Below, piece after piece: positions 1-49,083 of a DNA stretch of 55,630 bases. Source of the stretch: Thermococci archaeon (GTDB lineage: Archaea > Hadarchaeota > B88-G9); assembly GCA_003660555.1 (NCBI GenBank), contig QMUK01000001.1, positions 1 to 55,630 of the forward strand, in the 5' to 3' direction. The notes below the pieces were generated by a model that ran no database searches, was not told the DNA's origin, and saw nothing but the letters and a program-made list of their open reading frames with translations. A program made the position numbers and the translations under genes. How positions within the stretch are numbered: position 1 is the stretch's first letter; each line of letters opens with the position of its first letter.

Positions 1-1595
1 TATTCAGTACTCTAACGAAAAGCGAGATAAGAAAGAGCTTCTCTAATCTATCTAGTTTGGACTTGAGACTTGCAGAGGCTGGGGAGACCAGACACATATT
101 AGATTGGTATTTTGGAGTTAACTTGACTAGAGCTCTCTCTATATCTGTTAGAAAGGCCGTGGGAAGCAGAGTATTAATAAGTACGGGGAGAGTACAAGGA
201 GCATGCCTTTCACTAATAGCTAAAAGAGAGTTCGAGATAAGGGAATTCAAACCGAGAAAGTTCTGGGAAATTGAAGCGAAACTCGAAAAGGACGGGAGAC
301 TTCTCTCAGCAAGACATAAATCAGGTAGAAGCTTCTCTAAGTCAGAGTTGAAATCCAAATTGGAGGAAATCAAAGATGAAAGATTTGCCGAAGTGAAGTC
401 GATAGAGGAGAAGGAAGTTAAGATACCTCCTCCACCTCCTTTTGATCTAGGAACACTTCAAATGGAATCCTTTTCCAAGTTGAACATCTCTCCGTCGAAG
501 ACCCTTAAAATAGCCCAAGACCTGTATGAGGAAGGATACATAAGCTATCCGAGGACAGATAGTCAAAAACTCCCGCCACTCAACTACAGGAAAATACTGT
601 CCAGTTTGTCATCAGTGTATGACGTAGAAGAGCTACTACACAAGGAAGAACTCATTCCTAGGCAGGGAAAAAAGGAAGACCCGGCACACCCTGCTATATA
701 TCCCACGGGACACCTTCCAACTAGAATGGGGAAGAAGTGGGAGGTATATGACCTGATAGCGAGGAGATTCATAGCTTGTTTCTCAGAACCGATGTTGCTC
801 AGGAAGAGTCGTGTGATAGTTACAATAGGCGGAGAGGAATTCATCCTTAGTGGAACCTCCGTGAAAAGTCCTGGATGGTCCAAACACTACCCAGCAGAGG
901 TCAAAGAGGAAGCCATACCAGCCCTAAGAGAGGGAGAACTATTAGAGGTAAAGGAGATTTCGCTCAGAGAAGGTGAGACTAGGCCCCCTCCTAGGTATAC
1001 TCCATCTACAATAATCAGGGAAATGGAGAGGAGAGGTCTCGGGACTAAGGCCACGAGAGCACATATATTGGACATACTCTACAAGAGAGGATACATCAGG
1101 GGGAGAAGGAGAATATACCTAACGAATCTTGGAGAGTCTGTTTTTAGAGCACTAGAGAAGTATTCTCCAGAAGTTTTGGACGAGAAACTTACCAGAAAAT
1201 TTGAGGATTCATTGGAGAAAATATGGGCGGGAGAAACTAGTAAGGACGAAGTATTACGCGAAGCTAGGGAGAAATTAGAGAGAATACTCCATTCCATAAA
1301 GAGAGCTGAGAGGGAAATAGGGAATGAGATATCCTTAGGAATGGGGACAGAGATAGGAATTTGTAGTAGATGTGGAGGGAGGTTAATCATCTCCGATTTA
1401 GGTAAAAAGAAGAGGATTACATGTACTGGACGTCTTAGTGGTAAATGTGATCTTGACAGAGAGATTGTAATCAATGGGGAGATAAAACTAAGTAAGAAGA
1501 GATGTAAGAGTTGCAAGTGCAGGTTAATCCACACAGGAATTGGAGAGGTATGTCCAAACCCAGAGTGCAACGGTAAAGTATATCTCCTAGATTGA
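1..1595 (+). CDS. topA: DNA topoisomerase, type IA (5' end lies upstream of the window; codon frame starts at base 3)
   Basis: The frame of ORF 57..1595 stays open back to base 3 (FSTLTKSEIRKSFSNLSS...), so the listed TTG start is an artefact. Type IA active-site Tyr motif EGYISYPRTDSQ. GTKATRAHIL helix. C-terminal CxxC...CxxC zinc-ribbon clusters. Confidence 0.85.
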   Translation, partial: FSTLTKSEIRKSFSNLSSLDLRLAEAGETRHILDWYFGVNLTRALSISVRKAVGSRVLISTGRVQGACLSLIAKREFEIREFKPRKFWEIEAKLEKDGRLLSARHKSGRSFSKSELKSKLEEIKDERFAEVKSIEEKEVKIPPPPPFDLGTLQMESFSKLNISPSKTLKIAQDLYEEGYISYPRTDSQKLPPLNYRKILSSLSSVYDVEELLHKEELIPRQGKKEDPAHPAIYPTGHLPTRMGKKWEVYDLIARRFIACFSEPMLLRKSRVIVTIGGEEFILSGTSVKSPGWSKHYPAEVKEEAIPALREGELLEVKEISLREGETRPPPRYTPSTIIREMERRGLGTKATRAHILDILYKRGYIRGRRRIYLTNLGESVFRALEKYSPEVLDEKLTRKFEDSLEKIWAGETSKDEVLREAREKLERILHSIKRAEREIGNEISLGMGTEIGICSRCGGRLIISDLGKKKRITCTGRLSGKCDLDREIVINGEIKLSKKRCKSCKCRLIHTGIGEVCPNPECNGKVYLLD

Positions 1596-1619
1596 CACAA
1601 CTGATGGGGGGTAGAGGAA

Positions 1620-1853
1620 ATGGTGAGTGCGTACGTCTTCATAACCACCCAGGTCGGCAAGGTCAAGAAAGTAATCGAGGAGGTAAAGAAGATAGAGGGA
1701 GTTGAGGAGGCAAAAGCAGTGACTGGTAGTTTCGACATAGTGGCGAAATTGTCCGCTAAGGACCTAGGCACCTTGACCAAAGCCATAATAGAGAAGATCC
1801 ACGAGATAGACGGTGTGTTGGACACTCAGACAGCAATAATAGTTGAACTATAG
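1620..1853 (+). CDS. Stand-alone Lrp/AsnC-type ligand-binding (RAM) domain protein
   Basis: 77 aa. Pattern AYVFI...G..V.EAKAVTGSFDIVAKL...IDGVLDTQTAIIV is typical of AsnC-type effector domains. Purine-rich RBS-like sequence upstream. Confidence 0.7.
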   Translation: MVSAYVFITTQVGKVKKVIEEVKKIEGVEEAKAVTGSFDIVAKLSAKDLGTLTKAIIEKIHEIDGVLDTQTAIIVEL

Positions 1854-1883
1854 TGTGAAAATGAAGTGAGTATTTACGATGGA

Positions 1884-2513
1884 TCATTTCCCCTTGGTGT
1901 CTATGTTTATCCTACCGATGTAATCCACAGGGACCCTCTTAGTCTTATTCCCTTCTTTCTTCTCTACTAATTCTACTGCTGAGACCTCGAACGATACCAT
2001 TGGGCTCACAGACACGTCTTTTGGAATAACACATTTGAAAATAATCTCCTTCTCTGATTTGTCTCCAGACAGTCGGTTTTTGAAGTGGAAATCATGCTCT
2101 CCATCATGGAGCGGCATTACTCTCCTTACTTCCTCACCCCTAATGATCTCGACTACGTACCCCTCGTAGTTCACCTCTGCAGATGAATTCATTCTCAAAT
2201 CTACTTTCAAGTCCACTTCGTATCTGTTGCAATTTCTATAAGGAGCAATTCTGCCAGTTACCTCTATCTCTCTCTCTTTCTTTAAATACTCCTTTATTAG
2301 ATTATTTGGGAGGACTTTGACGCTCAGAGTAATTTCTCCTATTTCAGTTGCGTTTTCAAAAAGCTGAGGATATATCTTCCCCGATTTAGTTATTTCAATT
2401 CCTTCAGATATGGTTATCCTCGAGGCCCCTATCATTCCGGTAGTGAGAACTATTCCGATTAGGAGAATAGCCCCAGTCACTTGAGACACTTTAGACAGAG
2501 TGGACAAGCTCAT
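1884..2513 (-). CDS. Hypothetical membrane-anchored protein (single N-terminal TM helix)
   Basis: N-terminal hydrophobic helix VTGAILLIGIVLTTGMIGA. Host-like codon usage. 23-nt overlap with the upstream gene. No recognisable domain. Confidence 0.5.
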   Translation of the reverse strand: MSLSTLSKVSQVTGAILLIGIVLTTGMIGASRITISEGIEITKSGKIYPQLFENATEIGEITLSVKVLPNNLIKEYLKKEREIEVTGRIAPYRNCNRYEVDLKVDLRMNSSAEVNYEGYVVEIIRGEEVRRVMPLHDGEHDFHFKNRLSGDKSEKEIIFKCVIPKDVSVSPMVSFEVSAVELVEKKEGNKTKRVPVDYIGRINIDTKGK

Positions 2514-3879
2514 TCCCTCCTTTCATCACCGAAGCTCTTGCCAGGAGGTAGGGGAGTAGGACCAATATTAAGGTTAGTGCTAGGAGAAACACATAGGCCC
2601 GTTTCCTATCCTCAACGACTATCTCCGTTGTCGAGGTATTCCCTACAAATCTTCTCCCACAACACTTGAATTCCGGAGGCGGAATCCTAATCACTCCCGG
2701 CATTTTCGGCCTGAAGGAATAAATCACGCTCTTCTTCTCACCTTTACCAACTCTTATTGTGAACACTTCCTCTTCTCCACCTTCGTATGGAACATCTACT
2801 ATTTTCCCTATTAGGGAAGTCCCTCCTGAGTTACTTATTTCGATGCGAACCTCCAAAGTCTCTCCAACCCAGGCTTTCGACTTAGATACAAACTTCTTGA
2901 TCTCTATTTTAGGAGACAAAGAAATGGCAGTGACTGCGAATCTAGTATAGAGTAGCCTACTCTCTTCATCCGAGATATAACCCCTCTCCAACAGAAGTTT
3001 TACTTCCTCTAAAGTCTCGAGGAAATCCTCATGCTTTCCAGTCTCTTCGTATAGCTTCGACATCACTATAGCGGCTAAGGACTTCGTGAGCAAGTCTCCG
3101 ATTTTAGCCTTGGAAGACAACCACTCCACCCCTCTGGAAGCGCTCTTAATGAACCTCTGGTCACCGGTCCTTCTGTAAAGCTCTATCAATGCATTACTTG
3201 CGTAATAAGTCTCAAGGTACCGAATTATTAGTGGTTGTTCTTCATCACCTTTACCCCAATATCCTTCCTCGTTTTGAATGGATATTAACCAATCTCCTGC
3301 ATCAATTAGGGAGTCCATAGCCTGCTCTCTCTCATCTAGCTGTAAGTCGGAATAGTACATCAAGGCCTCCATCATGTAGCATGTCTGAGGCACGTATACC
3401 TTCCAAACTGTGGAGTTAGTCCAAGTTTGCCTTATTAGCCAAGAACCAGCGTTTTTTATATCTTTCATTATGTTTTTCTTGTAGTTCTCATCTTTAACGT
3501 AGTTCAGACTCTCCCTAAGTGTTATTATTACTATCGCAGTGAGATCTTCCTCGGGCCTCCTTTCCGATCCAGAGATATATTCGCCCCAAACCCTGAATAT
3601 TCTATTGCCTTCTCTGTGGGGAATCCTTTGTCCTCTCAACCAACTTATCCCTTCTATAGCAGGAGATAGGAATTCCTTTCTCCCAGTGTAGTTGTAAAGT
3701 CTAAGCAGAGTGTAAACGGTGACCGCTGTTTTACCGACACTCTCCTCTGAGATATATGACTTCTCTCTTGATATCAGCCAGTTCCCTACATCTTCTAATC
3801 CCCCACTAGCTTCTTGCAGATTACACAGTAGAGTTATCGAGAGGAGAAGTAGAACGATGACTTCCTTGAGATCTTTCAC
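2491..3879 (-). CDS. Secreted alpha/alpha-toroid (prenyltransferase/squalene-oxidase-repeat-like) protein with Ig/CARDB-like domain and C-terminal TM anchor
   Basis: Signal peptide VIVLLLLSITLLCNL. Five spaced repeats: GNWLISRE, ISWLRGQR, GSWLIRQT, GDWLISIQNEEGYWG, VEWLSSKA. Beta-rich segment VGETLEVRIEISNSGG. C-terminal helix YVFLLALTLILVLLPYLLA. ATGA overlap with the upstream gene. Confidence 0.6.
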   Translation of the reverse strand: MKDLKEVIVLLLLSITLLCNLQEASGGLEDVGNWLISREKSYISEESVGKTAVTVYTLLRLYNYTGRKEFLSPAIEGISWLRGQRIPHREGNRIFRVWGEYISGSERRPEEDLTAIVIITLRESLNYVKDENYKKNIMKDIKNAGSWLIRQTWTNSTVWKVYVPQTCYMMEALMYYSDLQLDEREQAMDSLIDAGDWLISIQNEEGYWGKGDEEQPLIIRYLETYYASNALIELYRRTGDQRFIKSASRGVEWLSSKAKIGDLLTKSLAAIVMSKLYEETGKHEDFLETLEEVKLLLERGYISDEESRLLYTRFAVTAISLSPKIEIKKFVSKSKAWVGETLEVRIEISNSGGTSLIGKIVDVPYEGGEEEVFTIRVGKGEKKSVIYSFRPKMPGVIRIPPPEFKCCGRRFVGNTSTTEIVVEDRKRAYVFLLALTLILVLLPYLLARASVMKGGNELVHSV

Positions 3880-4988
3880 TTTCCTATCACCCTAATGATG
3901 ACTTCATCACCTATTTCTAATCCCAGACTCTTTCTTATGTGCCTTGGTACTCTGACTACACCTTTACCGGAGTAATCTCTTTCTTGAATTGGATATACCC
4001 TAGCCCTTCCCTTCATGCCACCCCTAGATACTATTTCCACTTGATATCCTGGTTCTCTCGGCACTCCTGGTATCAATCCCCATCTCTTTATGAGTTCTGG
4101 GTCTACTCTGACGACATCTCTTCGTTCATCACTCCAAGAAGCCTCTACTACAGTCAACCTAACCTCAGCGAGCACCCCCTCTTCTCTCCTCTTCTCCTTT
4201 ATTTCGGCCTCCTCCTCTCTCTCGATTTTTCTAGACCTGATGGTCCCTTCTATTATTACCCCTTCTCCTATCTTTATCGATTTACCATATTCTACTCCCT
4301 TTCGTATTACAGAGCTGCTTCCTATTTCTAGCCCCCCATTGACTTTCATTTCTTCTATTTCGCATGATTTACCTACTTTTACATCCCCTTTTACATCTAT
4401 TTCCCCTATGGAACACTTATCTCCAATCTCTAAATCGCCATCAGAGGAGATTCCCTTGGGAATGGAACAGCTCTCTCCAAGTTTGACGTTGGAATTACAA
4501 GAAACTTTCCCAAGGATTTCTGAGGAGTTGCCTACTATTAGCCTACCACCAACTATTAGGTCTCCGGATATTCTAGAGTTAGGTCCTATTTCTGCATCTC
4601 TGTTCACCTTGAGAGTCCCTTTGACTACTAAGCTGTCTTTCGAGGACAAACTTCCGGAAACTTCTAGATCTCTCTCAAAAGTAGACTTCCCACTTAGATC
4701 TAGGCTGCCTTCAACTTTCATACTACAATCAACCTTTAGACTCCCATTAGACTTGACGTTACCAGAAAATGATACCTCCTCACCCATACACACTATTTCT
4801 ACGTCCTTACCGAGTATTGCTCCAGAACTAACCTGAATGAGACCAATTTTAGTTCCATCTGGAACGATGAGATTCCTCTCCCCTTCCCTCCTAGTCCTAA
4901 ATGTCTCTTTTTCTACTCCAATCCTATCCCTGAGGCCTTCCTCACCCATCTCCTCTCTCCTTCCGAAGACCCTCATGACACTCCCCAT
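3876..4988 (-). CDS. Bactofilin-like (polymer-forming beta-helix) protein fused to a CDC48/VAT-N-like or AbrB-like C-terminal barrel
   Basis: About 200 aa of degenerate G-x-[LIV]-x-[LIV] repeats (GSLKVDCSMKVEGSLDLSG..., GDLIVGGRLIVGNSSEILGKV...). Charged linker. C-terminal VVRVDPELIKRWGL...GVVRVPRHIRKSLGLEIGDEVIIRV. Confidence 0.6.
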   Translation of the reverse strand: MGSVMRVFGRREEMGEEGLRDRIGVEKETFRTRREGERNLIVPDGTKIGLIQVSSGAILGKDVEIVCMGEEVSFSGNVKSNGSLKVDCSMKVEGSLDLSGKSTFERDLEVSGSLSSKDSLVVKGTLKVNRDAEIGPNSRISGDLIVGGRLIVGNSSEILGKVSCNSNVKLGESCSIPKGISSDGDLEIGDKCSIGEIDVKGDVKVGKSCEIEEMKVNGGLEIGSSSVIRKGVEYGKSIKIGEGVIIEGTIRSRKIEREEEAEIKEKRREEGVLAEVRLTVVEASWSDERRDVVRVDPELIKRWGLIPGVPREPGYQVEIVSRGGMKGRARVYPIQERDYSGKGVVRVPRHIRKSLGLEIGDEVIIRVIGK

Positions 4989-12232: not shown

Positions 12233-13105
12233 ATGGTCGGGAAAATAAGAGGTTACTCGAGAGACCCTAGAATGGGACAACTACTCCAAATGTGGAGAGA
12301 TGGGCAAGTAATAGAGAAGAGACTTACATCGGAGATGAAGGAGAGGCTACCGAATTTAAAGGACGAAGAAATAACAGAAATATTAGAGGAAGAGAAGAAG
12401 TTAAGAGAAAGAGAGGAGAAAGTGATGAGAAAACTTCATTTATATTTTCTGGCCTGCTCTATCTCTCCTCTAAGTGGCAGGAGAGATTCGTGTAGAAGAT
12501 ATGAGTTCAGAGTGAATGATCTGATTAGCAAATACTGCAGAGGAGAACTATCTCCAAAGGAGTACCTAGAGCAATTAGAAAAGCTAGAAAGAAGAATAAT
12601 GGCAGAACACGAGGTAGTCATGTTAGAAAAACACTTCTTTGATAAGGTCAGTAACATCCTCAAACTCTCTGGAGTGGAAGTGAGTGACGAGGCCCTAGCG
12701 ATGAGACTTTTCCCAGAGAGCGTAGATGGACTCAAGAAGTACAGACTAAGCGAATATAGAGAGAGTCTGAATGAGAACAATAGCTTAGCAAAACTGGTCA
12801 GGATAGTTGTCGAGAGACTTGCACACAATGATGTAGCGCCAATTCTACTAGACACTAACGAGGAAAAAATGCTTCGGGAAGTAGAAAGAAGAAATGTCAA
12901 TTCAAGGAAACTGGAAAAGGACGAGGAAAAAGCTAAAACAATAAACAAACTAGTCGGAACAGGATTAGTGCTCATAGAAAATGGAGAATATGCAATAACT
13001 GAAGAGGGCAAGGAAGTCATGAGAATACAGGAGTTCTTAAACGATATAGCCAGAAAAATAGGATACGAGAGATGGAATGACCTAGTAGCTCCGAGAACAA
13101 CTTAG
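12233..13105 (+). CDS. Hypothetical highly charged coiled-coil protein, possible C-terminal wHTH wing
   Basis: Host-like codon usage. ATG preceded by GGGAGAAG. KLVGTGLVLIENGEYAITEEGKEV resembles a winged-helix wing. No other motif recognised. Confidence 0.5.
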   Translation: MVGKIRGYSRDPRMGQLLQMWRDGQVIEKRLTSEMKERLPNLKDEEITEILEEEKKLREREEKVMRKLHLYFLACSISPLSGRRDSCRRYEFRVNDLISKYCRGELSPKEYLEQLEKLERRIMAEHEVVMLEKHFFDKVSNILKLSGVEVSDEALAMRLFPESVDGLKKYRLSEYRESLNENNSLAKLVRIVVERLAHNDVAPILLDTNEEKMLREVERRNVNSRKLEKDEEKAKTINKLVGTGLVLIENGEYAITEEGKEVMRIQEFLNDIARKIGYERWNDLVAPRTT

Positions 13106-13122: not shown

Positions 13123-16100
13123 CTAGGGGGGAGAAGAGAAGTCCTCTCCCCATATTTCTGGATTATAGTATGCGTAGGCCTTATTGTATAATTCCTTGCC
13201 CTTTACTGGAAATAAAGCTGAGGCTTTGAACGAGAAAGACAGTATCTCAAATGCCTCTAAGTTGTCTATATAGAATATGACTTTTCTTCCGGCCAAATCG
13301 TATCTCTTGATTTTGTTAGGCAGATTTAAAAGACTATCCTCCACGACTTTAAATCCCGTTGGAACCGAGACATCTAGGACGACCATGCCAGTTTCCATGG
13401 GCATCCCTTCTTTCGGAACGTACTTAACTCTGACGAGTATCGAGATCTGATCAGTCTCCTCGATACCCTCTGAAGAATATTCTACGTCTAGCTCGATTGG
13501 TTCATAACTCTGTTCTTCTCGCAGAACATTGTATTTTCTTACCAATTGGAGGAATACCTCTCCTTTACCCTTGGAGACTACCTTAATTCTCTTATCCGGG
13601 GGTATCGACATCTCTTGCAACACATCGAAGTTGTTCTCATCCACCTTCATCTCACCGATTTTCCTTCCTTCTGCTAATACCTCTATCTCCATTTCGACTT
13701 CTTTCCCTTTGGCTCCAGCTGCTAGGGAGAACTCAGTAATGGCTTTTATTGCTACCACTGTGTCTTGGGTTGAGAAGAATCCTCCGTTAGAGTTTCTCTT
13801 ACTTAATATCCAATCTATTGCCTGTTTAGCATCCTCAAATCTACCAGAATTGATTAGGGCAAGTGCGGCATATGAAGTGGCCTCTATTGAAATAGCTGGG
13901 TTTTCGAATTCATATCCCCAATGGAGTCCGTTTTCATCTCTCCTCGAAGCCTCTATTAACTTGTCTATCACTTCGTCAGAGGAAGAACCAGCTAGAGATA
14001 GTGCGTAGGAGACTATTGCTATGGAATAAGAGTCATCTAGTGTGGGATAAATCTTCTTCAGATAGGATATGCCTGATTCAGTCCTGTAGCCATATTCCAA
14101 CAGAGAAGAGACTACATAAGCCGTAAGGGGTACCCTGCCTGAGACCCCACCGAGTATTTCCTTATGATGAACGAATCCGATCGGCTCCCAGTATCCCTCT
14201 TCAGACTGCTTGCTTATTATCCAGTTCTTTGCTCTCTCCAGCACATTTTCATCTATGTATATTAATTCTTTCGCCTCTGAAAACGTCCTGAGTACGAAAG
14301 CAGTCAGGAACAGGCTCCCTTCATCATCTCTTTCACCAAAAGCTGAAAATGACCCATCTTCTCTCATGAACGTTAGCTCTCTCTGATATCCTGTAATTAG
14401 AAACTTTTCAGCCTTTGCCAGTATTTCAGGGTTAATATCTCCAGAAGACTTCATGTATTTTGTCACATAGACATCTGGAGCCATGAATATCATGTTCTGC
14501 TCTCCACAACCGAAGGGCATCTTCAAGAGAGAGTCTAGACCCTCTATTACTTGAGACATGTAAGCACCAGTTACTCTCAAGTAAACCTTTTCTGATCCCA
14601 CTACGTGCTTTGGTACCTTAGTATCTAGCTCTATGATGTCTCCGGAAGTTAATTTGTAGTTCTCCACCTCTTCGACAGGCTTACCTTCCGGATCGACTTT
14701 CAACGTCTTTGAGACAGCATCCGAGTGCCTTTCACCTCTAGCAAATATGGTGAATCTCCAAAGTCCAATCTTCTTTGGTCTTATTCTAAAAGAAACCGAG
14801 TTCAGGTCATTTCCATCAACTTCAATCCATTTTCTTTTATCGTCTAAGAAATCCAACCAAGTCTCGTTTGTATTGAAATCCAATAGGACTCTCTCCTTTC
14901 TGTCAGAGTAGTTGTAAATTGTTACCTTGATTGGAAACTCCTCTCCTCTAATAACAGAATATGGAACGTCTACTTTCAAGAAAAAGTCTCTGAAGACTCT
15001 TATTTCACTTTCCCCTATACTTATTCCTTTTTCAGAAGTTGAGATGGCTCTGAGATACCAAGTGGTTATGGTATCTGGAGCAGTTAAAACGATCTCTTTT
15101 TCTCCTTTCGAGACTACACTTCCCCAGAACCAAGTTTCCGGGAAGTACTCCCTGATTAGTTCAATTTCTTTTAGACCCATGGCAGCTTCCCCTATAGACT
15201 CAAGCGTCTTTCTCTGTTGAGCTAAAGGCATTATTACTCCTTTTACACCACCGAAATCTCCTTCTACCGCGATTTCTGGCCTAGGCATACTTGGTATTGA
15301 AGCGTTGGATATCACCATCACTTTAGCCTCTGAGAACACTTCCTTAGAAGATCTGAAGTGCACCTCATACCTAGGTTCCATGTAGACTCTCTCTAGCTCC
15401 TCTAACACTTGCTCGAGGTTTAGCCTAGACTCCTCCAAGAACACTAAAGACTTATCTATCAGAGTTAGACCCACTTTAGCCACACCATCTGTCTTTATCT
15501 TTAGTTTCACATCTTCTCTTGGCTCAACTTCTTCCTTAGAGAAGGAAACTTCTAAAATTTCTTCCAATCCCTTTACCTTTACTGGAAGATAGTCAACAGC
15601 CACCTCTAAACTAGGTGTTATTTGATATACTACTACTTTGAACTCGGGATACATCTCGGGAGTTACTTTAAGCTTTAGAACTTCTCTAGTAGACCCAGAT
15701 TCTAGTACTCTTCCCCAAACGTTTATTACTTCATAAAAGATAGTACCCCCACTGCTAGTAGAATAAATTCTAAATTCTACTTTTTCTCCTATTCTAGGAA
15801 CTCCATCAGATACTTGCTCTATGTGAATGAAGCTACCGCTCGGCGAATAGTACGGGAACATCTCTTTCTTAGAGTATAGCTCTCCTCTAATGTAAGCTAG
15901 GATCTCCAAGTAAGTACAGTCTTCAGGCGGGGTTATAGATAAGATTGCCTTTCCCTTCTTCGATTTAACAGATAATTTATCTTCTCTTAGACCTTTTTCT
16001 GTGTAGTATCTTGCTTTAACCTCCAACTCAACATCTATAGGAGAGTTATCTGGATTCTCTGTTATCAGAAGTGTTTTCAGAGGCAATCCAGGTTTAAAAC

Positions 16101-17109
16101 TCAAGTCACTAGGTATTATTTGTACTAGGACAGGTTTCTCTGGTATTTCTACTATCTCGGTTCTGCTTTGGGAATAACCACTGTCTTTTTCCGTTACAGT
16201 GAAGTTCAGTAGGACTTTCCCCATTCCTCTTCCTGAGAAAGTCCCAGTAGTGTATTTGACTGGAGGAACCCTGAATTCAGCTTCCCCGTTTATTTCACTC
16301 TTTCCTCTGAAATACTCCTCCCATTTACCTACGTATCTCATCGCTCTTATTTCCAAAGTTCCTTTGACAGCTCTTCCGAATGAGTACTCTGCCTTAACCA
16401 CTCCTCTTATGCTCTCATCTGGGAGAAACCAACTTTTACTCAACTCAACTGAAATACCGAATTTGGGAAGGGAGTATTTCTCAACTCTGAATTCAACCGA
16501 GGATAGACTATCCCCAGACTTAACTTCAACCCTCCATCTTCCCAAGTTAGGCTCTTCTGAAAGAGGAAATGAAAGTTCATAGAAGCCAAATTCGTCAGTC
16601 CTAGCTTTTTTGCGAAATACTTTGATGTTCTTCGAATCGAAGACACTAATCTCGATTTCCTTTGAGAGAGGATTCATCATAGGTCCTAGGGATATTATCC
16701 TGAGCTTTACATCTTGTCCTGGCTTATATATGGGTTTGTCTGTCTCTATTATCAGAATCGGTCTATCTACCACTCTTATGGTATCTCTTCCCTCGAAATC
16801 TCTTGATTTCACGATTACTAGGTACTCTCCAGGCTCAACCAATTCTAGCGGTATTTCTTTTTTTCCATCGACTTTCACCTTTTTATTCAAAACTTCTCTG
16901 TTGTCCTTCTTGACCAGAACCTCTAGCGAAACTTCCCCCCGAGAGACTACGGATAGACTTCCTTTTTCTCCAAGAGAAAGGATTTTAGGTGCTGTCAATA
17001 GAAAGTAGCCCCCACCTCGTTCAGATTCACGTTGAATGCAGCAGCTCAGAGGGATTGTTAATACAAACAGCAGCAGTATTAGAGCCATCGGTAACTTCTG
17101 CCCAACCAT
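13123..17109 (-). CDS. Alpha-2-macroglobulin / thioester-containing protein family member with intact CGEQ thioester motif
   Basis: 1328 aa. Signal peptide MALILLLFVLTIPLSCC (lipobox-like). Beta-rich MG-like N-terminal half. PFGCGEQNMIFMAPDVYV, with the CGEQ codons at 14497-14508. Toroid hallmarks LFLTAFVLRTF and WIISKQSEEGYW. C-terminal beta domain. Confidence 0.9.
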   Translation of the reverse strand: MVGQKLPMALILLLFVLTIPLSCCIQRESERGGGYFLLTAPKILSLGEKGSLSVVSRGEVSLEVLVKKDNREVLNKKVKVDGKKEIPLELVEPGEYLVIVKSRDFEGRDTIRVVDRPILIIETDKPIYKPGQDVKLRIISLGPMMNPLSKEIEISVFDSKNIKVFRKKARTDEFGFYELSFPLSEEPNLGRWRVEVKSGDSLSSVEFRVEKYSLPKFGISVELSKSWFLPDESIRGVVKAEYSFGRAVKGTLEIRAMRYVGKWEEYFRGKSEINGEAEFRVPPVKYTTGTFSGRGMGKVLLNFTVTEKDSGYSQSRTEIVEIPEKPVLVQIIPSDLSFKPGLPLKTLLITENPDNSPIDVELEVKARYYTEKGLREDKLSVKSKKGKAILSITPPEDCTYLEILAYIRGELYSKKEMFPYYSPSGSFIHIEQVSDGVPRIGEKVEFRIYSTSSGGTIFYEVINVWGRVLESGSTREVLKLKVTPEMYPEFKVVVYQITPSLEVAVDYLPVKVKGLEEILEVSFSKEEVEPREDVKLKIKTDGVAKVGLTLIDKSLVFLEESRLNLEQVLEELERVYMEPRYEVHFRSSKEVFSEAKVMVISNASIPSMPRPEIAVEGDFGGVKGVIMPLAQQRKTLESIGEAAMGLKEIELIREYFPETWFWGSVVSKGEKEIVLTAPDTITTWYLRAISTSEKGISIGESEIRVFRDFFLKVDVPYSVIRGEEFPIKVTIYNYSDRKERVLLDFNTNETWLDFLDDKRKWIEVDGNDLNSVSFRIRPKKIGLWRFTIFARGERHSDAVSKTLKVDPEGKPVEEVENYKLTSGDIIELDTKVPKHVVGSEKVYLRVTGAYMSQVIEGLDSLLKMPFGCGEQNMIFMAPDVYVTKYMKSSGDINPEILAKAEKFLITGYQRELTFMREDGSFSAFGERDDEGSLFLTAFVLRTFSEAKELIYIDENVLERAKNWIISKQSEEGYWEPIGFVHHKEILGGVSGRVPLTAYVVSSLLEYGYRTESGISYLKKIYPTLDDSYSIAIVSYALSLAGSSSDEVIDKLIEASRRDENGLHWGYEFENPAISIEATSYAALALINSGRFEDAKQAIDWILSKRNSNGGFFSTQDTVVAIKAITEFSLAAGAKGKEVEMEIEVLAEGRKIGEMKVDENNFDVLQEMSIPPDKRIKVVSKGKGEVFLQLVRKYNVLREEQSYEPIELDVEYSSEGIEETDQISILVRVKYVPKEGMPMETGMVVLDVSVPTGFKVVEDSLLNLPNKIKRYDLAGRKVIFYIDNLEAFEILSFSFKASALFPVKGKELYNKAYAYYNPEIWGEDFSSPP

Positions 17110-17193
17110 TTTTACCCCCTCTGTCTAATATCTCTCCTCAATCTATATTCTCAACTTGGAATTTCAATGTATCTTAAAACAATTTTGAAGAAA

Positions 17194-17219
17194 TAGTTCA
17201 GAGTAGTTCCTCTTAGTTC
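17194..17219 (+). promoter_or_regulatory. Three TAGTTC direct repeats with exact 10-bp phasing (candidate operator)
   Basis: TAGTTC occurs at 17194-17199, 17204-17209 and 17214-17219. The repeats lie between a TATA-like CTTAAAACAATTTT (17173-17186) and the GTG start at 17225. Confidence 0.45.
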
Positions 17220-17224
17220 CGAAA

Positions 17225-18166
17225 GTGATATACCTCGGAAGTGAAAGAAACTCTGGGTCAAGCTTGCTTCCAGTGGTCCTCATCTCGCTGCTAGCTCTCG
17301 CCCCATTATATCAAATAGAGGAGCTGAACGTCACAGTGGAAATTACCGAGATGGGATACTCAATGGAAGAAATGAAAATACTCTACTTAGCTAATTCAAC
17401 TCTGATAGGAGATAAATTGCACCTCTATGGAGAGATAGAGATCCTATCTGTGGAGGATGAAAAGGGAGAGATTCAGCACCAAGAGGAGTACACAGATAGG
17501 GGACTTCTCCTAACGTATGTGTTTCGTAAGCCACTTAGGAGTGGAGAGGAGTACAGGGTCAGGGTCAGATACAGGAACTGGGGAATAAACAAGAGAGGTA
17601 GAAGCTGGGTATACGATAAGACGCTTTCCTCAGGAGCTCCGATACACACTTTAGAAGTGAAAGTCTATCTACCAAAGGATTTCAGAGTCAAGGTCCCTGA
17701 TGAGATCCCTCCAAACTATATAGGAGAGGAAAACGGGAAAATAGCACTTATTTGGACCACTTCACTTAAAACCAGAGAGGAATTTGTGCTTAGATTCGAA
17801 TACTCCTCTGAACCCAGTGAAAAAAGAAACTACTTACTTTACTTAACTGTAACGTCCTTGTTCACTTCAGTGATTTTGTCTATTCTTTTAGTCAGAGAAA
17901 TATATACTTCAAGGAGAAGAAAAATAAAGCTAATGAGTATATACCGAACCCTAGATGAGAGGGAGAGAGAAGTGCTGGACTTCCTGAGGAAGATGGGAGA
18001 AACATGCCAAGGGGAAATAGGGAAAGCTTTAGGAATACCCAAGTCCTCTTTGAGTAGAACGGTCTCTCGTCTAGAGAGAAAGGGACTAGTAAGGGTTAAT
18101 AAGAGGGGGAAGAGAAAGTATCTTTCACTGAGGGAGGATGTGGTTGAGGATGATGAGCAGCAGTAG
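17225..18166 (+). CDS. Membrane-tethered winged-helix (MarR/TrmB-like) transcriptional regulator with extracytoplasmic domain
   Basis: N-terminal hydrophobic segment LLPVVLISLLALAPL. About 190-aa beta-rich domain. TM helix YLLYLTVTSLFTSVILSILLV. Cytoplasmic wHTH EVLDFLRKMGETCQGEIGKALGIPKSSLSRTVSRLERKGLVRV. Confidence 0.65.
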   Translation: MIYLGSERNSGSSLLPVVLISLLALAPLYQIEELNVTVEITEMGYSMEEMKILYLANSTLIGDKLHLYGEIEILSVEDEKGEIQHQEEYTDRGLLLTYVFRKPLRSGEEYRVRVRYRNWGINKRGRSWVYDKTLSSGAPIHTLEVKVYLPKDFRVKVPDEIPPNYIGEENGKIALIWTTSLKTREEFVLRFEYSSEPSEKRNYLLYLTVTSLFTSVILSILLVREIYTSRRRKIKLMSIYRTLDEREREVLDFLRKMGETCQGEIGKALGIPKSSLSRTVSRLERKGLVRVNKRGKRKYLSLREDVVEDDEQQ

Positions 18167-29125: not shown

Positions 29126-29965
29126 ATGATGCAAGCTCAAGAACATCCTTTAGAGAAATACCTCAGAGTTGACAGACTACCGCACGTTTGGTGTCCTGGA
29201 TGTGGTATAGGGACAGTCCTTGGAAGCTATGTGAGGGCAATTGATAGACTAGGTTTAGATCTGGACAAGATGGCAATGGTCTCTGGAATAGGGTGTGCAG
29301 GGAGAGCAGCAGGATACGTGAACATGGATTCCTTCCATACGACTCATGGTAGGGCTATACCATTTGCAGTCGGACTCAAGCTCGCTAAGCCAGAGCTAAT
29401 AGTAACTGTCTTCAGCGGAGACGGAGATCTATTTGCTATAGGAGGCAATCACTTCATACATGCAGCTAGAAGAAACTGCGACCTCAAAGTAATATGTGTG
29501 AATAACTTCAACTACGGGATGACTGGTGGCCAATTGGGCCCGACTACTCCTCTTGGAGCCAAGACTACTACTTCTCCATATGGAAACTTGGAGTTACCAC
29601 TCAACCTACCATATTTCGCTGCTTCCTGTGGCTCCTCTTATGTAGCTAGGTGGACTTCTCTGCACGCTAGGAACATGATCGAGTGCTTCGAGGAGATATT
29701 AGAGAAAAAGGGCTTTTGCTTCGTTGAAATACTATCGCCTTGTCCAACGGTATATGGGAGAAGAAACGAGATGCCAGAGGGATTAGACATGATGAAACTC
29801 TTCAAAGAGAGATGTGAAATAAGGAACTTTGAAGACACTTCCAGAGTTGGCCTTAATCAGGAAAAAATAATAATAGGAAAGTTCGTAGACGAAGAGGAAA
29901 AAGAGACGTTTGAAGACAGAGTATATTCTCTCATGGAGGAAGTGAAATGGGGAGGTTCGAGATAG
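29126..29965 (+). CDS. korB: 2-oxoacid:ferredoxin oxidoreductase, beta (TPP-binding) subunit
   Basis: WCPGCGIG, SGIGCAGR, and GDGDLFAIGGNHFIHAARRN (TPP/Mg motif). Confidence 0.9.
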   Translation: MMQAQEHPLEKYLRVDRLPHVWCPGCGIGTVLGSYVRAIDRLGLDLDKMAMVSGIGCAGRAAGYVNMDSFHTTHGRAIPFAVGLKLAKPELIVTVFSGDGDLFAIGGNHFIHAARRNCDLKVICVNNFNYGMTGGQLGPTTPLGAKTTTSPYGNLELPLNLPYFAASCGSSYVARWTSLHARNMIECFEEILEKKGFCFVEILSPCPTVYGRRNEMPEGLDMMKLFKERCEIRNFEDTSRVGLNQEKIIIGKFVDEEEKETFEDRVYSLMEEVKWGGSR

Positions 29966-30495
29966 TGTTCTCGGGATTCGGAGGACAAGGAATAGTTCTA
30001 GCTGGATTGATAATCGGAAAGGCTGCAGCAATATTCGATGGAAAGGAAGCAGTTTTTACACAAAGCTATGGACCAGAGGCAAGAGGAGGTGCCTCTTCCT
30101 CATCAGTAGTTGTTGATGAAGAGAGAGTGGACTACCCCTACGCGGAGAACCCAGACTTGCTAGTAGTCATGTCCCAAGAAGCCTATAACAAGAGGATAGG
30201 AATGCTCAAGCCTGGAGGAACCCTAGTCTACGACTCAGATCTAGTGAAAATAGACGAGAGAGCTAGAAAAGCCTCCGAGATATACGGGATCCCAGCTACT
30301 AGAATAGCGGAAGAGAAGCTAGGCAAGAGAATAGTGGCGAACATAGTTATCTTAGGATTCTTAGCCAGAATCTGTAAAGTAATAAGCAAGGAATCTCTTA
30401 AAAAAGCAGTTTTAGACACAGTACCAAGAAAATTCAGAGAAGTAAATGAAAAAGCATTCGAATTGGGTTATTCTTACCTTGATTGGAGGGAATGA
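29947..30495 (+). CDS. korG: 2-oxoacid:ferredoxin oxidoreductase, gamma subunit
   Basis: FSGFGGQGIVLAGLIIGKAA...SYGPEARGG. 19-nt overlap with korB. Confidence 0.9.
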   Translation: MGRFEIVFSGFGGQGIVLAGLIIGKAAAIFDGKEAVFTQSYGPEARGGASSSSVVVDEERVDYPYAENPDLLVVMSQEAYNKRIGMLKPGGTLVYDSDLVKIDERARKASEIYGIPATRIAEEKLGKRIVANIVILGFLARICKVISKESLKKAVLDTVPRKFREVNEKAFELGYSYLDWRE

Positions 30496-30496
30496 C

Positions 30497-32467
30497 TTGA
30501 GAATAGGAGTCTTCGTTTGCCATTGCGGAAGAAACATATCCTCCACAGTAGACGTATCTAGAGTTGTCCGAGAGGTTTCAGAGAGGAGCAGGAAGGTAGT
30601 CTTCTCAACGGATTATAAATACTTGTGCTCTGACCCAGGACAAAAGCTAATAGAAGAAAAAATTAAAGAAGAAAACCTAGATGCTGTAGTAATAGCTGCT
30701 TGTTCCCCCTCTATGCACGAAGAGACTTTCAGGAGAGTGCTAAAGAGAGCTGGAATAAACGAGTACTTGTTGGAAATAGCTAATATAAGGGAGCAATGCA
30801 GCTGGGTACACGAAGACGGTACTGAAAAAGCAATAGCTCTAACATTGGCTGCAGTGGAGAAGGTATCTAGAAATGAGAAGTTAAAACCAATTAAAATAGG
30901 AGTTAAAAGAAAGTGTCTAGTTATAGGCGGAGGAATAGCTGGAATAACTGCTTCCCTGGACTTAGCTAATTCAGGATTTGAAGTAATCTTAGTTGAGAAA
31001 TCCCCAACAATAGGTGGAAAAATGGCCCAATTGTCCGAGACTTTTCCAACATTAGATTGTTCCCAATGCATTTTAACACCGTTAATGGTATCTCTATCAA
31101 GAAATGATAGGATAAAGCTTTATACAATGAGTGAAGTAGTAGAAATTGATGGATACGTGGGGAACTTTAGGGTCAAGATAAAGAAGAAGCCTAGATATGT
31201 AATAGAGGAAAAATGCACAGTATGCGGCGAATGCGAGAAAGTATGCCCAGTAATAGTCCCAAATGAGTTCGATAGAGGCCTTTCCTATAGAAAAGCAATA
31301 TACATACCATTTCCACAGGCTGTACCCTCTTCCTATGTTATAGATCCAAACAGTTGTCTCGGATTGAATCCCGTGGTCTGTGGGAAATGTAAAGAGGTTT
31401 GCGAAGCAGACGCAATAGACTATCACATGAGAGAGGAGACGATAGAAGAGGAAGTAGGTGCGATAATCGTTGCTACAGGTTATGAGCTCTTTCCTAAGGA
31501 TAGAATAGGAGAATACGGATATGGAACATATGAAGACGTAATAGATGCGCTGGAATTCGAGAGAATACTTTCCTCTACTGGACCAACAGGAGGTACTGTG
31601 AAGAGGCCCAGCGATGGGAGAACACCAAAGAGAGTCGTTTTCATACAGTGTGCAGGCTCCAGGGACGAGAATTATCTGGAGTATTGCTCTAAGATCTGCT
31701 GCATGTACACAGCTAAGCAGGCGATGTTATACAAACACCTAGTTCCAGAGGGAGAGGCATATGTGTTCTACATAGACGTGAGGACAGCGGGAAAAGGATA
31801 CGAAGAGTTCTTTAGGAGGGTTCAGGAAGAGGAGGGAGTCATCTACATAAGGGGGAAGGTATCCAGAGTCTACCGAGAAGGAGAGAATCTAATTGTAGAA
31901 GGAGTAGACACGCTCACAGGTAAGAAGCTCACCATAGAGGCGGATCTGGTAGTTCTCTCCACAGGAGTAGTTCCTCCGGAAGGAACAGAGAACTTAGTCT
32001 CTGTGTTGAAGATACAACAAGACCAGAGTGGTTTCCTCAAAGAAGCTCACCCAAAGCTGAAGCCGACTGAAACCCTTACCAAAGGTATTTTCATTTGCGG
32101 AGCAATTCAAGGACCAAAAGACATAACTGAGACAGTTTCTCAGGCAAAAGGAGCTGCTAGTGCGGTAATGGAGTTGCTATCTATGGGAGAAGTGGAGAGG
32201 GATCCCATAGTAGCTAGGGTGAATGAAGAGTACTGCGTGGCTTGCAAGACTTGCGAATCCCTCTGCCCATTCGGGGCCGTGAAAGTCAGAGATAAAGCGG
32301 AGGTAAATGAGGCTTTATGCGAAGGATGTGGAATATGTGCAGCTTCTTGTCCAACAGGAGCAATAGAAGTGGTTAACAATAAATTTGATCAGTTCGAAGA
32401 GGTCTTAGAGGTGTTAATCAATGGTAGAGAAAAGCTGGAGACCGAGAATAGTGGCCTTCCTTTGTAG
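30497..32467 (+). CDS. hdrA: Heterodisulfide reductase subunit A (FAD/Fe-S, electron-bifurcating type)
   Basis: N-terminal IGVFVCHCGRNIS. FAD fold LVIGGGIAGITASLDLA. Several CxxCxxCxxxCP clusters. A TTG start at 30497, 1 nt after the korG stop and after GGAGGG, is preferred over the ORF-track ATG at 30446. Confidence 0.9.
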   Translation: MRIGVFVCHCGRNISSTVDVSRVVREVSERSRKVVFSTDYKYLCSDPGQKLIEEKIKEENLDAVVIAACSPSMHEETFRRVLKRAGINEYLLEIANIREQCSWVHEDGTEKAIALTLAAVEKVSRNEKLKPIKIGVKRKCLVIGGGIAGITASLDLANSGFEVILVEKSPTIGGKMAQLSETFPTLDCSQCILTPLMVSLSRNDRIKLYTMSEVVEIDGYVGNFRVKIKKKPRYVIEEKCTVCGECEKVCPVIVPNEFDRGLSYRKAIYIPFPQAVPSSYVIDPNSCLGLNPVVCGKCKEVCEADAIDYHMREETIEEEVGAIIVATGYELFPKDRIGEYGYGTYEDVIDALEFERILSSTGPTGGTVKRPSDGRTPKRVVFIQCAGSRDENYLEYCSKICCMYTAKQAMLYKHLVPEGEAYVFYIDVRTAGKGYEEFFRRVQEEEGVIYIRGKVSRVYREGENLIVEGVDTLTGKKLTIEADLVVLSTGVVPPEGTENLVSVLKIQQDQSGFLKEAHPKLKPTETLTKGIFICGAIQGPKDITETVSQAKGAASAVMELLSMGEVERDPIVARVNEEYCVACKTCESLCPFGAVKVRDKAEVNEALCEGCGICAASCPTGAIEVVNNKFDQFEEVLEVLINGREKLETENSGLPL

Positions 32468-32837
32468 GTGGTGTGGGTACGCTGGAGCTGATCTGGCTGG
32501 TGTTTCGAGGATGAAGTACCCAGAGATATATCCAATTAGAGTGAATTGTAGCGGGAGCGTACATCCAGAGCTCATTTTAGATGCTTTCAGGAAGGGAGCC
32601 GATGGAGTCCTAATATGTGGTTGCCATACGCCCAATGACTGCCATTACATCTCCGGAAACTACAAGGCATTGAAGAGGGTGGCCCTAGTAAAGAAGTTGC
32701 TTTCCCAGCTGGGAATAAACCAAGAAAGGGTTAGACTCGAGTGGATATCTGCTGCAGAGGGCAGGAAGTTTTCAAGAGTAGTTAAAGAGTTTTATGAAAA
32801 GATAAGAGAACTAGGACCATTGGAGGTGCGTGTTTGA
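32421..32837 (+). CDS. mvhD: Methyl-viologen-reducing hydrogenase delta subunit (MvhD)
   Basis: IVAFLCRWCGYAGADLAG...CSG...GADGVLICGCH motif set. Overlaps the hdrA 3' end. Confidence 0.85.
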   Translation: MVEKSWRPRIVAFLCRWCGYAGADLAGVSRMKYPEIYPIRVNCSGSVHPELILDAFRKGADGVLICGCHTPNDCHYISGNYKALKRVALVKKLLSQLGINQERVRLEWISAAEGRKFSRVVKEFYEKIRELGPLEVRV

Positions 32838-35162: not shown

Positions 35163-35171
35163 GGTGATTAG

Positions 35172-35663
35172 GTGTTACTCATAGTAGGGTTGGGCAATGA
35201 ATTAGCTGGAGAAGACGCGTGCGGGATCCTAATAGCAAAGGAAATAATCAAGGAGGTAAAAAAAGAGGATTGGTTAAGAGATAAGCTTGAGAGCGGGGAG
35301 TTAACGATAAAATACGGAATAAACAACTACTTCTCTCTAATAGAGGAGTCCATAGGATTCGATGAGGTAATAGTATTGGATTCCATAAGCTCAGAGGATT
35401 TGGATGAAGGGGAAGTAGTCGAGATATCTTTGGGAGACAACATACATCAAGTCATACCACCCCATCCGGTCTCCCTGCTCCAAGGAATAGAGTTGATGAA
35501 GTCTCTTGGAATCTTCCCAGAGGAATTCAGGATAATATGTGTTAACGTCAGGAGGAAAAGCTTCGGGGGAAGAATTTCCGAGGAGGTAATCCGAGGTATG
35601 GAGATAGTCAAGGAGATAGTGATGGAGGAGATAGCTTATGAATTCGGTGAAGGAAATAGCTAA
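35172..35663 (+). CDS. [NiFe]-hydrogenase maturation endopeptidase
   Basis: N-terminal LIVGLGNELAGEDACG. Position directly after the large-subunit gene. Confidence 0.8.
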   Translation: MLLIVGLGNELAGEDACGILIAKEIIKEVKKEDWLRDKLESGELTIKYGINNYFSLIEESIGFDEVIVLDSISSEDLDEGEVVEISLGDNIHQVIPPHPVSLLQGIELMKSLGIFPEEFRIICVNVRRKSFGGRISEEVIRGMEIVKEIVMEEIAYEFGEGNS

Positions 35664-37458: not shown

Positions 37459-37464
37459 TTGTAG

Positions 37465-49035: not shown

Positions 49036-49055
49036 TGTGGTCAGCGAGGCAAGGG

Positions 49056-49061
49056 TTATAA
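49056..49061. promoter_or_regulatory. Palindromic TTATAA box shared by two divergent leaderless genes
   Basis: The centre is about 23.5 nt from the minus-strand ATG (49035) and about 25.5 nt from the plus-strand ATG (49084). The spacer is only 48 nt. Confidence 0.4.
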
Positions 49062-49083
49062 CCGTAATCTCTGGCTTCGAACC

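Follow-up and report, generated by a model that had tools for sequence, protein, structure and literature searches.

What is a protein of the alpha-2-macroglobulin (A2M)/complement superfamily doing in an archaeon, and does its gene belong there? The question is raised by an open reading frame (ORF) at 13123..17109 on the minus strand of contig QMUK01000001.1 (assembly GCA_003660555.1, 'Thermococci archaeon'; GTDB lineage Archaea; Hadarchaeota; B88-G9), the whole 55,630-nucleotide stretch of which was analysed and is referred to here as the window. The public record of the product (NCBI RLF96394.1) reads 'hypothetical protein [Thermococci archaeon]', with no functional annotation, and no NCBIfam family model covers it; a sequence-only reading of the window had proposed a thioester-type A2M/TEP homologue. 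As judged from its primary structure and predicted fold, the protein is an alpha-macroglobulin of the CD109/iTEP type, not of the ECAM type found in E. coli, and the gene is native to its archaeal contig.

A complete alpha-macroglobulin domain array

The ORF is complete, encodes 1328 amino acids (aa) and is the largest in the window (runner-up, 738 aa). Its domains were assigned by a Pfam profile search, in which all matches but that to MG4 lie far above the curated cut-offs, and by an AlphaFold2 model of residues 129–1328 (predicted local distance difference test, pLDDT, 75.5; predicted template modelling score, pTM, 0.52) that we compared with the PDB using Foldseek. All coordinates given for domains and motifs refer to the minus strand.

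The N-terminus, MVGQKLPMALILLLFVLTIPLSCC, is hydrophobic and signal-peptide-like, ending in Cys23-Cys24 (residues 1–24; 17038..17109). The lipobox is imperfect; reading P-L-S-C23-C24 (IPLSCC), it gives a perfect match at neither cysteine. Where the sequence-only reading saw a signal peptide with a lipobox-like LSCC, we thus find the hydrophobic stretch and the cysteine pair but no canonical lipobox. In bacterial homologues a canonical (I/L/V)P(G/A)C lipobox (IPGC, LPAC or VPGC) follows the signal peptide with its cysteine aligned, and the Cys24 column is at least 90% conserved among homologues in the alignment; from this comparison the N-terminal cysteine is a probable lipid anchor, which would presumably be lipidated in this archaeon too.

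Beyond the signal peptide we see a series of MG domains. A probable MG1 (residues ~34–117; 16759..17010), which lies outside both the Pfam matches and the model, is recognised by full-length collinearity with homologues and by its conserved Y36/P41 start. It is followed by MG2 (residues 121–209; 16483..16749; PF01835, E=2.7e-20), a beta-sandwich in the model, by MG3 (residues 211–281; 16267..16479; PF17791, E=1.7e-10) and by MG4 (residues 332–405; 15895..16116), for which the Pfam match is weak and below cut-off (PF17789, E=0.005), although the model is all-beta here and Foldseek aligns the domain to CD109. MG5/MG6 with the bait-region domain A2M_BRD (residues 432–556; 15442..15816; PF07703, E=6.7e-24) then lead into the bait region itself (residues ~585–650; 15160..15357), located between the BRD and a conserved REYFPETWFW (the FPETW motif). 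Just after this motif starts the A2M domain (second half of MG6 plus MG7; residues 659–741; 14887..15135; PF00207, E=3.4e-24).

The C-terminal half consists of a TED inserted into a CUB domain, with an MG8 behind it. The TED (residues 844–1127; 13729..14580; PF07678, TED_complement, E=1.3e-73), an alpha/alpha toroid, appears in the model as a helical block (model residues 722–1007) between beta segments. The first of these, the putative first half of the CUB (residues ~746–843; 14581..14874; beta strands at model residues 611–719), is placed with respect to the TED as in CD109/A2ML1; the second (residues ~1128–1238; 13396..13728; beta strands at model residues 1011–1102) would complete it, the boundaries of both halves being approximate. 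The array closes with MG8, the receptor-binding-type domain A2M_recep (residues 1239–1318; 13156..13395; PF07677, E=1.2e-14). There is no Pfam match to an anaphylatoxin (ANATO) or C345C/NTR domain, and the protein ends at MG8 (residue 1328).

Within the TED, the codons TGT GGA GAG CAG, read at 14508 to 14497 (14497..14508), encode Cys868-Gly-Glu-Gln871 as part of GCGEQNM (residues 865–882 are PFGCGEQNMIFMAPDVYV); the cysteine and glutamine align with the thioester positions of CD109, A2ML1 and A2M. The hallmarks of the toroid follow, LFLTAFVLRTF at residues 933–943 and WIISKQSEEGYW at residues 963–974, and further on His982 (14164..14166), in FVHHKEILGG, occupies the catalytic-His position of A2ML1: the column holds His in A2ML1 (LLHTAMKGG) and CD109 (VIHSELQGG) and Asn in human A2M (LLNNAIKGG). 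Conservation along the protein is highest in the TED, where the entropy around the motif is 0.35–0.5 bits. The protein contains only four cysteines in all, and no N-glycan or disulphide framework.

A series of MG beta-sandwiches, a TED within a CUB, a C-terminal MG8/RBD and a Cys and Gln at the thioester positions, features by which the superfamily is recognised, are all to be found here. The claims that the sequence-only reading had made about the gene, namely a 1328-aa minus-strand product, largest of the window, with a beta-rich MG-like N-terminal half (MG2, MG3, A2M_BRD and A2M above cut-off, MG4 weak), an intact thioester signature with CGEQ at 14497–14508, toroid hallmarks and a C-terminal beta domain, are borne out, as is homology to A2M/TEP proteins by profile search and structure prediction alike.

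Likeness to CD109 and distance from the E. coli type

Searched at full length against the PDB with phmmer, the protein finds metazoan structures in all the top places: CD109 (5e-125), A2M (4e-118), A2ML1 (7e-99), mosquito TEP1 (3e-91) and C3 (2e-79), with C3, C4 and C5 scoring below CD109, A2M and TEP1. The TED alone behaves alike (CD109, 2e-58; A2ML1, 5e-52; A2M, 2e-50; TEP1 within 1e-47 to 1e-58); against E. coli YfhM it reaches E=0.055–0.18 only, and BLASTP of the protein against YfhM (MG1655) returns a single 149-aa MG2-like patch of 21% identity. At the level of structure, the model is native-like. Foldseek aligns it to native CD109 over ~1270 columns (E=3e-71; TM-score on the query, TMq, 0.69) and to the native A2ML1 and the native A2M monomer with TMq 0.67 and 0.68 (0.66–0.69 for native forms overall), whereas activated or induced conformers score 0.35–0.43 only. 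Insect TEP1 is matched with E=1.9e-61; ECAM and Salmonella A2M come in at ranks 43 and 47, with TMq 0.55 and 13% identity.

Human CD109 (PDB 8S3O, native; 9FX3, activated) is thus the best match in both sequence and fold. It has the same domain order and GCGEQNM, a His at the catalytic position, a similar size (1445 aa versus 1328 aa), no anaphylatoxin or C345C domain, and, if the N-terminal cysteine is indeed lipidated, the two would share a lipid anchor on the producing cell. Identity between them is only ~26–31%, however, and the anchors are not alike: that of CD109 is a C-terminal glycosylphosphatidylinositol on MG8 of a furin-processed protein which is freed from the cell on activation (PMC12927315), while the window protein, with its probable N-terminal Cys anchor, would remain on the cell. 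The latter also has a shorter bait and does without the N-glycan/disulphide framework. Human A2ML1 and the insect/myriapod TEP1-type iTEPs (PDB 7Q1Y, 2PN5/4D94; P0188, P0191, P0213) are monomeric and collinear with the window protein over their full length at ~28–31% identity, and the catalytic His of A2ML1 confers hydroxyl reactivity (PMC9156758); these are, though, secreted, soluble metazoan proteins, and TEP1 is an opsonin acting with LRIM partners, for which there are no partner genes here.

To ECAM/YfhM and Salmonella SaA2M (PDB 5A42, 4ZIQ, 4U48) the kinship is that of superfamily and overall fold. Both are lipoprotein-anchored monomeric thioester traps (PMC12939704), 'lipoprotein YfhM' being the PDB name of ECAM, a description that the window protein would match if its putative anchor and trap role are correct. 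They differ in reading CLEQ (PYGCLEQT in YfhM, just as the sequence-only reading had stated for enterobacterial A2Ms), in their length of 1653 aa, which includes additional MG0/NIE domains at the N-terminus (PMC12939704), in sharing an operon with pbpC, which yfhM adjoins in MG1655, and in residing in a diderm periplasm. The window protein has CGEQ, is 1328 aa long, has no bacterial-MG Pfam match and no penicillin-binding protein (PBP) gene as neighbour. Nor does it look like complement C3/C4/C5: there is no anaphylatoxin domain in place of the bait and no C-terminal C345C/NTR.

The bait region is hypervariable and predicted to be disordered

Residues 556–657 of the protein (428–529 in model numbering) have a pLDDT <50 and are predicted to be disordered. 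The bait columns show the highest entropy in the family (1.9–2.4 bits versus a mean of 1.09), and the bait is also the most length-variable segment, at 61 aa in the window protein versus 71–90 aa in its relatives. Variation is focused here within the species as well; seven of the 40 positions that vary among 13 near-identical population variants fall in residues 585–650, where 2.0 are expected (hypergeometric p=0.0027), and the structure-defined interval 556–657 contains eight (p=0.009). A flexible, variable loop ahead of a conserved FPETW motif, as in baits of the inhibitor type, is what we observe, and the pattern is supportive, if not conclusive, of a protease-sensitive loop under diversifying pressure.

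The gene is native to an archaeal genome

The contig carries an archaeal-type TopA (TIGR01057, above cut-off), the archaea-specific TiaS and HdrA2, in agreement with the archaeal genome assumed in the sequence-only reading, together with a Vhu/Mvh-type hydrogenase, a TfrA-like flavoprotein, DUF1152 and HypA/C/F. The A2M gene lies 13–17 kb inside the 55.6-kb contig and has archaeal markers on either side. The gene order (HypF, HypC, HypA, a small ORF, a winged helix-turn-helix (wHTH) regulator, the A2M gene, a 290-aa unknown and a ParA-like gene) is identical in three independent assemblies, from JGI, ENA and Logan, and the 90%-identity cluster of the protein has 13 members, RLF96394.1 among them; these are the population variants, and the gene is intact in all of them.

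Composition tells the same story. In its synonymous codon usage the A2M gene resembles the rest of the contig (leave-one-out z=-0.04; third-position GC content, GC3, 0.406), so a comparison of codon usage gives no sign of a foreign gene. The fraction of the residues I, V, Y, W, R, E and L (IVYWREL) and the charged-minus-polar difference are 0.470 and 0.122 in the protein versus 0.475 and 0.131 in the remaining ORFs of the window; among 119 bacterial homologues the means are 0.418 and 0.044, and not one is as high as the window. Applied to the amino-acid composition of 46 ORFs, a growth-temperature formula returns ~110 °C, a figure taken only as 'hyperthermophile-like', and this composition suggests that the proteins of the host are heat-adapted in look.

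Because synteny, codon usage and amino-acid bias are all native-like, contamination, chimerism and recent transfer are excluded as sources of the gene. Bacterial contamination, which the sequence-only reading had named as something that could overturn its claim, is not the case, and its suggestion of HGT finds no backing as far as recent transfer is concerned: amelioration of the gene is complete, and its branch is long and early (see below). A recent transfer from Dehalococcoidia, considered separately, was rejected since composition is normal and the gene, on its long branch, is not nested in the crown group.

The host lineage is itself phylogenetically isolated, since HypF has no non-self relative above 50–51% identity among 5.8 billion proteins (its matches are to ANME-1, Thermoplasmatota and Halobacteriota) and the divergently transcribed regulator has no homologue outside its own cluster. 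With the neighbouring HypF reaching only 50–51%, the identity of about 45–47% between the A2M protein and its nearest relative is unexceptional.

A prokaryotic CD109-like clade

The nearest non-self proteins are 42–46% identical, and those that carry a name are called 'alpha-2-macroglobulin family protein' (the PGAP name; Dehalococcoidia/Chloroflexota) or, in IMG, 'CD109 antigen'. Annotated relatives, whose wide presence in sister lineages the sequence-only reading had said would lessen the novelty, do exist among bacteria. When GTDB species were scanned, each by a single genome, 491 of them proved to encode a relative. The best 80 of these 491 are nearly all Chloroflexota (Dehalococcoidia, Anaerolineae, Chloroflexia), with several Actinomycetota, one Sphingomonadaceae bin and two loci labelled archaeal, L064 (Methanosarcinales, Guaymas) and L054, which are 79% identical to each other. 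L054 is archaeal, the adjacent uL6 scoring above the archaeal equivalog cut-off and below the bacterial one; its A2M gene is intact and adjoins the genes for this archaeal uL6 and for A-ATPase subunit D. In L064 (Methanosarcinales archaeon B64_G16; 31–3687) the gene is split into ORFs of 1034 and 176 aa and truncated by the contig end, the split being either a frameshift/pseudogene or a sequencing error.

A wider phmmer search of 1.84 billion cluster representatives returned 10,911 matches at E<=1e-3 and 2,561 at E<=1e-30, which represent the superfamily. Only ~25 representatives lie at 35–44% identity. The next tier, at ~30%, is mixed: bacterial YfaS-type and Armatimonadota proteins match in the C-terminal half only, while metazoan CD109-like proteins and TEP1 (millipede, centipede, horseshoe crab, abalone, mosquito) are collinear over the full length.

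In a distance-based neighbour-joining tree (112 sequences, 1316 columns, 200 bootstraps; internal support weak), the window protein falls in a prokaryotic CD109-like clade that is recovered in 200/200 bootstraps and separated from the metazoan sequences by a long stem; this is the placement that a phylogeny against bacterial and metazoan TEPs, called for in the sequence-only reading, provides. A long branch (0.52) leads to the window protein, which is paired weakly (101/200) with P0148, an unplaced metagenomic sequence whose 4.3-kb contig carries the A2M gene alone. The two branch below L054/L064 and the Chloroflexota/Actinomycetota crown, again with weak placement (39/200). Mean identity of the window protein to crown members is 43%, against ~64% for crown members among themselves. 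We read this as a copy that is either old or fast-evolving, which would fit thermoadaptation. A sister relationship of the two archaeal lineages is unsupported, L054/L064 being next to the Chloroflexota crown and apart from the window; since they branch separately, the gene would appear to have entered archaea at least twice, if the weak placement (39/200) holds.

Members of the clade share with the window protein a length of ~1330–1400 aa, the Pfam array, an N-terminal Cys after a signal peptide, a variable bait and a stand-alone gene. The GCGEQNM, DGSFSAFG and GSL(W/F)LTAFV blocks, as well as His982, are invariant in 57 aligned members, so that GCGEQNM, which the sequence-only reading had regarded as the animal form, is equally the form of a large, Chloroflexota-dominated prokaryotic clade. 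What sets the window protein apart is its archaeal host, hyperthermophile-like composition, imperfect lipobox, shorter bait and long early branch. Deeper members of the clade (P0155/P0158/P0163; Acidobacteriota and unplaced, ~1900 aa) have C-terminal extensions of ~500 aa past MG8.

When flanking ORFs within 3.5 kb were clustered over 82 loci of the clade, no conserved neighbour emerged, neither pbpC nor an extracytoplasmic function (ECF) sigma/anti-sigma pair nor any other, the largest family being present at seven loci. The missing pbpC, noted for this gene in the sequence-only reading, is accordingly the rule for the clade and no peculiarity of the window. Many Dehalococcoidia, like archaea, have no peptidoglycan wall and a protein surface layer instead; the missing PBP partner would fit such wall-less hosts.

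Gene neighbourhood and other features of the window

By geometry the A2M gene is monocistronic, with a divergent gene upstream (17225..18166, plus strand) and a convergent gene downstream (12233..13105, plus strand), and none of the ORFs scanned in the window was seen to encode a PBP; on both counts the sequence-only reading was right. The divergent intergenic region of 115 bp (17110..17224), read by eye on the minus strand, contains a Shine-Dalgarno-like GAGGGGGT at 17114–17121 and a TATA-like TTTTAAGATA at 17170–17179. The gene at 17225..18166 encodes an orphan membrane-tethered regulator. It starts with a hydrophobic segment, continues with an ectodomain of ~170 aa and a further transmembrane segment, and ends in a winged helix of the MarR_2/TrmB/DUF7343 kind. 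Among 5.8 billion proteins no homologue exists beyond the cluster of its own species. The gene adjoins the A2M gene in all assemblies of this species, and we consider its product a candidate regulator of the A2M gene. A functional parallel is seen at a bacterial locus of the clade (L081, 8524–9878; P0002), where genes for an ECF sigma factor and its paired zf-HC2 anti-sigma factor are found upstream of the A2M gene and divergent from it, an arrangement not conserved across the clade. PADLOC found no defence model matching the A2M protein, and in its neighbours only domain-level similarities (a wHTH like Csa3/CasR, P-loop, TPR).

Further along the window, co-directional ORFs at 29126–39114 (plus strand) include an HdrA2-like protein, the large subunit of a Vhu/Mvh-type [NiFe] hydrogenase and a TfrA-like flavoprotein; no methanogenesis marker was seen among the ORFs scanned on the contig, and the combination suggests Hdr/Mvh-type electron bifurcation in a non-methanogen. 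The tRNA-Gln(CTG) at 52442–52532 (minus strand) is 91 nt long versus 77 nt for the other two tRNAs, and probably contains an archaeal intron. Codon-usage outliers (54051–55315, minus strand; 49024–49842, plus strand) comprise an ORF without Pfam match (z=-3.7), an Rce1-like CAAX protease (z=-3.0) and a TauE exporter (z=-2.3); those with Pfam matches belong to membrane-protein families, and the deviation may be an effect of composition rather than of foreign DNA. At 3876–4988 (minus strand) a bactofilin domain is fused, unusually, to a CDC48_N/MazE(AbrB)-like domain at the C-terminus.

Discussion

How, then, might such a protein work? The reading we favour, to which we assign a probability of roughly 0.6, is that the protein is a protease trap of the CD109/A2ML1/iTEP kind, monomeric, membrane-tethered and dependent on conjugation, in an archaeon that looks heat-adapted and to which the gene is native. 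We arrive at it because the full domain array is collinear over its whole length with CD109, A2M, A2ML1 and TEP1, with no anaphylatoxin or C345C-type domain added; because the model matches native CD109, A2ML1 and A2M; because GCGEQNM and His982 are invariant in the clade; because the bait is disordered, the most variable part of the family and enriched for polymorphism within the species; because homologues possess a canonical lipobox, and CD109 (PMC12927315) and ECAM are likewise lipid-anchored monomers; and because the gene is intact in 13 variants with host-like codon and amino-acid usage.

On this basis, the protein would be exported and, anchored by its N-terminal cysteine, would probably stay on the outer side of the cytoplasmic membrane. 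In the native state the Cys868–Gln871 thioester would be buried between TED and MG8, in keeping with the shielding by MG8 described for native members (PMC9156758). A foreign endopeptidase cutting the exposed, disordered bait loop (~585–650) would bring about a large MG-ring/CUB-TED rearrangement and so expose the thioester; in CD109 and A2ML1, bait cleavage leads through a conformational change to covalent protease capture (PMC12927315, PMC9156758). The corresponding His of A2ML1, C3 and C4B attacks the nascent thioester to form an acyl-imidazole, reactive to hydroxyl and amine groups (PMC9156758), and His982 may do likewise, leading to reaction with the amine/hydroxyl groups of the attacking protease. 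This would end covalently bound and sterically blocked at the surface, such that S-layer/membrane proteins would be protected in protease-rich sediment. Export, lipidation, thioester formation, protease trapping and the physiological target are each steps that we infer.

Several points weigh against this picture. Confidence in the model is moderate, and its leaning towards the native state may be an effect of AlphaFold training; the lipobox is imperfect; the bait-polymorphism test involves only 40 sites in 13 related sequences; a catalytic-type His also occurs in C3 and C4B, which are opsonins, and hence fails to discriminate between trap and tagger; and thioesters are heat-labile, which makes activity at the temperatures implied by the composition of the proteome only putative.

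The same scaffold could be put to other uses. Limited proteolysis might be followed by His982-catalysed transacylation onto hydroxyl-rich surfaces, serving not for inhibition but for tagging, immobilisation or attachment, in the way of an opsonin-like adhesin of the TEP1/C3 type, with targets that would include glycans of neighbouring cells, viruses, ectosymbionts and mineral-associated polymers. The position of His982 is the one that gives C3, C4B and A2ML1 their hydroxyl reactivity, insect TEP1 is a strong full-length match (3e-91; Foldseek, 1.9e-61), and archaeal TEP homologues have been discussed in connection with conflict and self/non-self recognition (PMC8416519). We nonetheless think a tagger unlikely: neither here nor in the 82 clade loci are there downstream effector or receptor genes, the closest solved relatives with the same His (CD109, A2ML1) are protease inhibitors, a tether to the producer's own membrane is better suited to local capture of proteases than to distant deposition, and hypervariability of the bait loop is a signature of inhibitory alpha-macroglobulins. 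Of the two roles suggested in the sequence-only reading, each reasonable in itself, the trap is hence favoured and the tagger less so. No more probable, in our view, is that the bait is tuned to endogenous peptidases, the protein having a housekeeping role in the control or buffering of the cell's own extracellular proteases or in envelope maturation, and limiting self-damage in a possibly peptide-fermenting organism. The gene is chromosomal, ameliorated and long resident, it lies amid housekeeping genes (Hyp, PhoU, TrkA) with no defence island and nothing from PADLOC around it, and the divergent membrane-tethered regulator could link its expression to envelope signals. The focus of within-species variation on the bait is, however, more like a response to changing external targets, and the only proteases among the ORFs scanned are a cytoplasmic-type M20 peptidase and the Rce1-like membrane protease, none of them secreted.

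Heat-induced autolysis of A2M and C3 is established chemistry, and a thioester may accordingly be labile at the hot growth that proteome composition implies; from this one could argue that the trap has been lost at high temperature and that an inherited A2M scaffold persists as a thioester-less or non-functional structural surface protein. A functional thioester-less member is known in complement C5 (PMC9156758). That GCGEQNM, His982 and the residues around them have been kept despite ~55% divergence from the nearest relatives, that the motifs are present in all 13 population variants and that the TED is the best-conserved part make this very improbable. As for the idea that Chloroflexota DNA was mis-binned or mis-assembled into an archaeal contig, the homologues are almost all bacterial, but the deep position between archaeal markers, the synteny common to JGI, ENA and Logan, the codon usage (z=-0.04; GC3 0.406), an amino-acid bias equal to that of the neighbours and above that of all 119 homologues, and a nearest homologue only ~45–47% identical leave it a negligible chance.

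An archaeal A2M-type thioester protein is not new as such, and the protein type and likely mechanism are well known. Makarova et al. 2021 (PMC8416519) described TED/A2M homologues in which CxEQ is intact from 24 archaeal genomes; together with the second archaeal lineage of the subfamily of the window protein (L054/L064), this makes outdated the view, taken in the sequence-only reading, that A2Ms lie outside the usual archaeal repertoire. Like the window protein, those homologues are archaeal and have a signal peptide and a TED with intact CxEQ, and some were ascribed to HGT from bacteria. They differ in coming from complete genomes of Halobacteria and Methanomicrobia, in being ECAM-like or archaea-specific with varied domain organisations, and in often lying beside Ig-domain or PTS-related genes (PMC8416519); a full CD109-type architecture in a Thermococci-labelled metagenome-assembled genome is not mentioned in the text of that paper. 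In reviews from 2026, metazoa and Gram-negative bacteria are the only groups given for the A2M family (PMC12939704, PMC13069473). Our literature search turned up no paper linking bacterial alpha-2-macroglobulin with Chloroflexi and no thermoadapted archaeal member, and the large CD109-like prokaryotic clade is undescribed in the literature searched.

What does this mean for the family? The clade is far nearer in sequence to animal CD109/TEPs than to the studied ECAM type, and so bears on the origin of the complement/TEP scaffold. It is, moreover, found in free-living anaerobic Chloroflexota, in Actinomycetota and in at least two archaeal lineages rather than in animal-associated Gram-negatives, which is awkward for the idea of prokaryotic A2Ms as colonisation factors acquired from metazoan hosts, and it bears on how microbes with little envelope beyond the membrane might be protected from extracellular proteases. 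It also raises a chemical question, that of a labile thioester kept intact in a hyperthermophile-like host, and the protein is possibly a robust one for structural or trapping applications. The boldest form of the proposal, which we advance tentatively and regard as doubtful, is a heat-working thioester trap that represents an early archaeal branch of an undescribed clade, closest among prokaryotes to the metazoan CD109/iTEPs. Were this true, students of mechanism and biotechnology would gain a thioester protein that nature has already stabilised against heat. It would also challenge the picture in which prokaryotes took over their A2Ms from metazoan hosts as factors for colonisation, and would suggest that the TEP/complement scaffold had a prokaryotic cradle or, failing that, was exchanged in ancient times.

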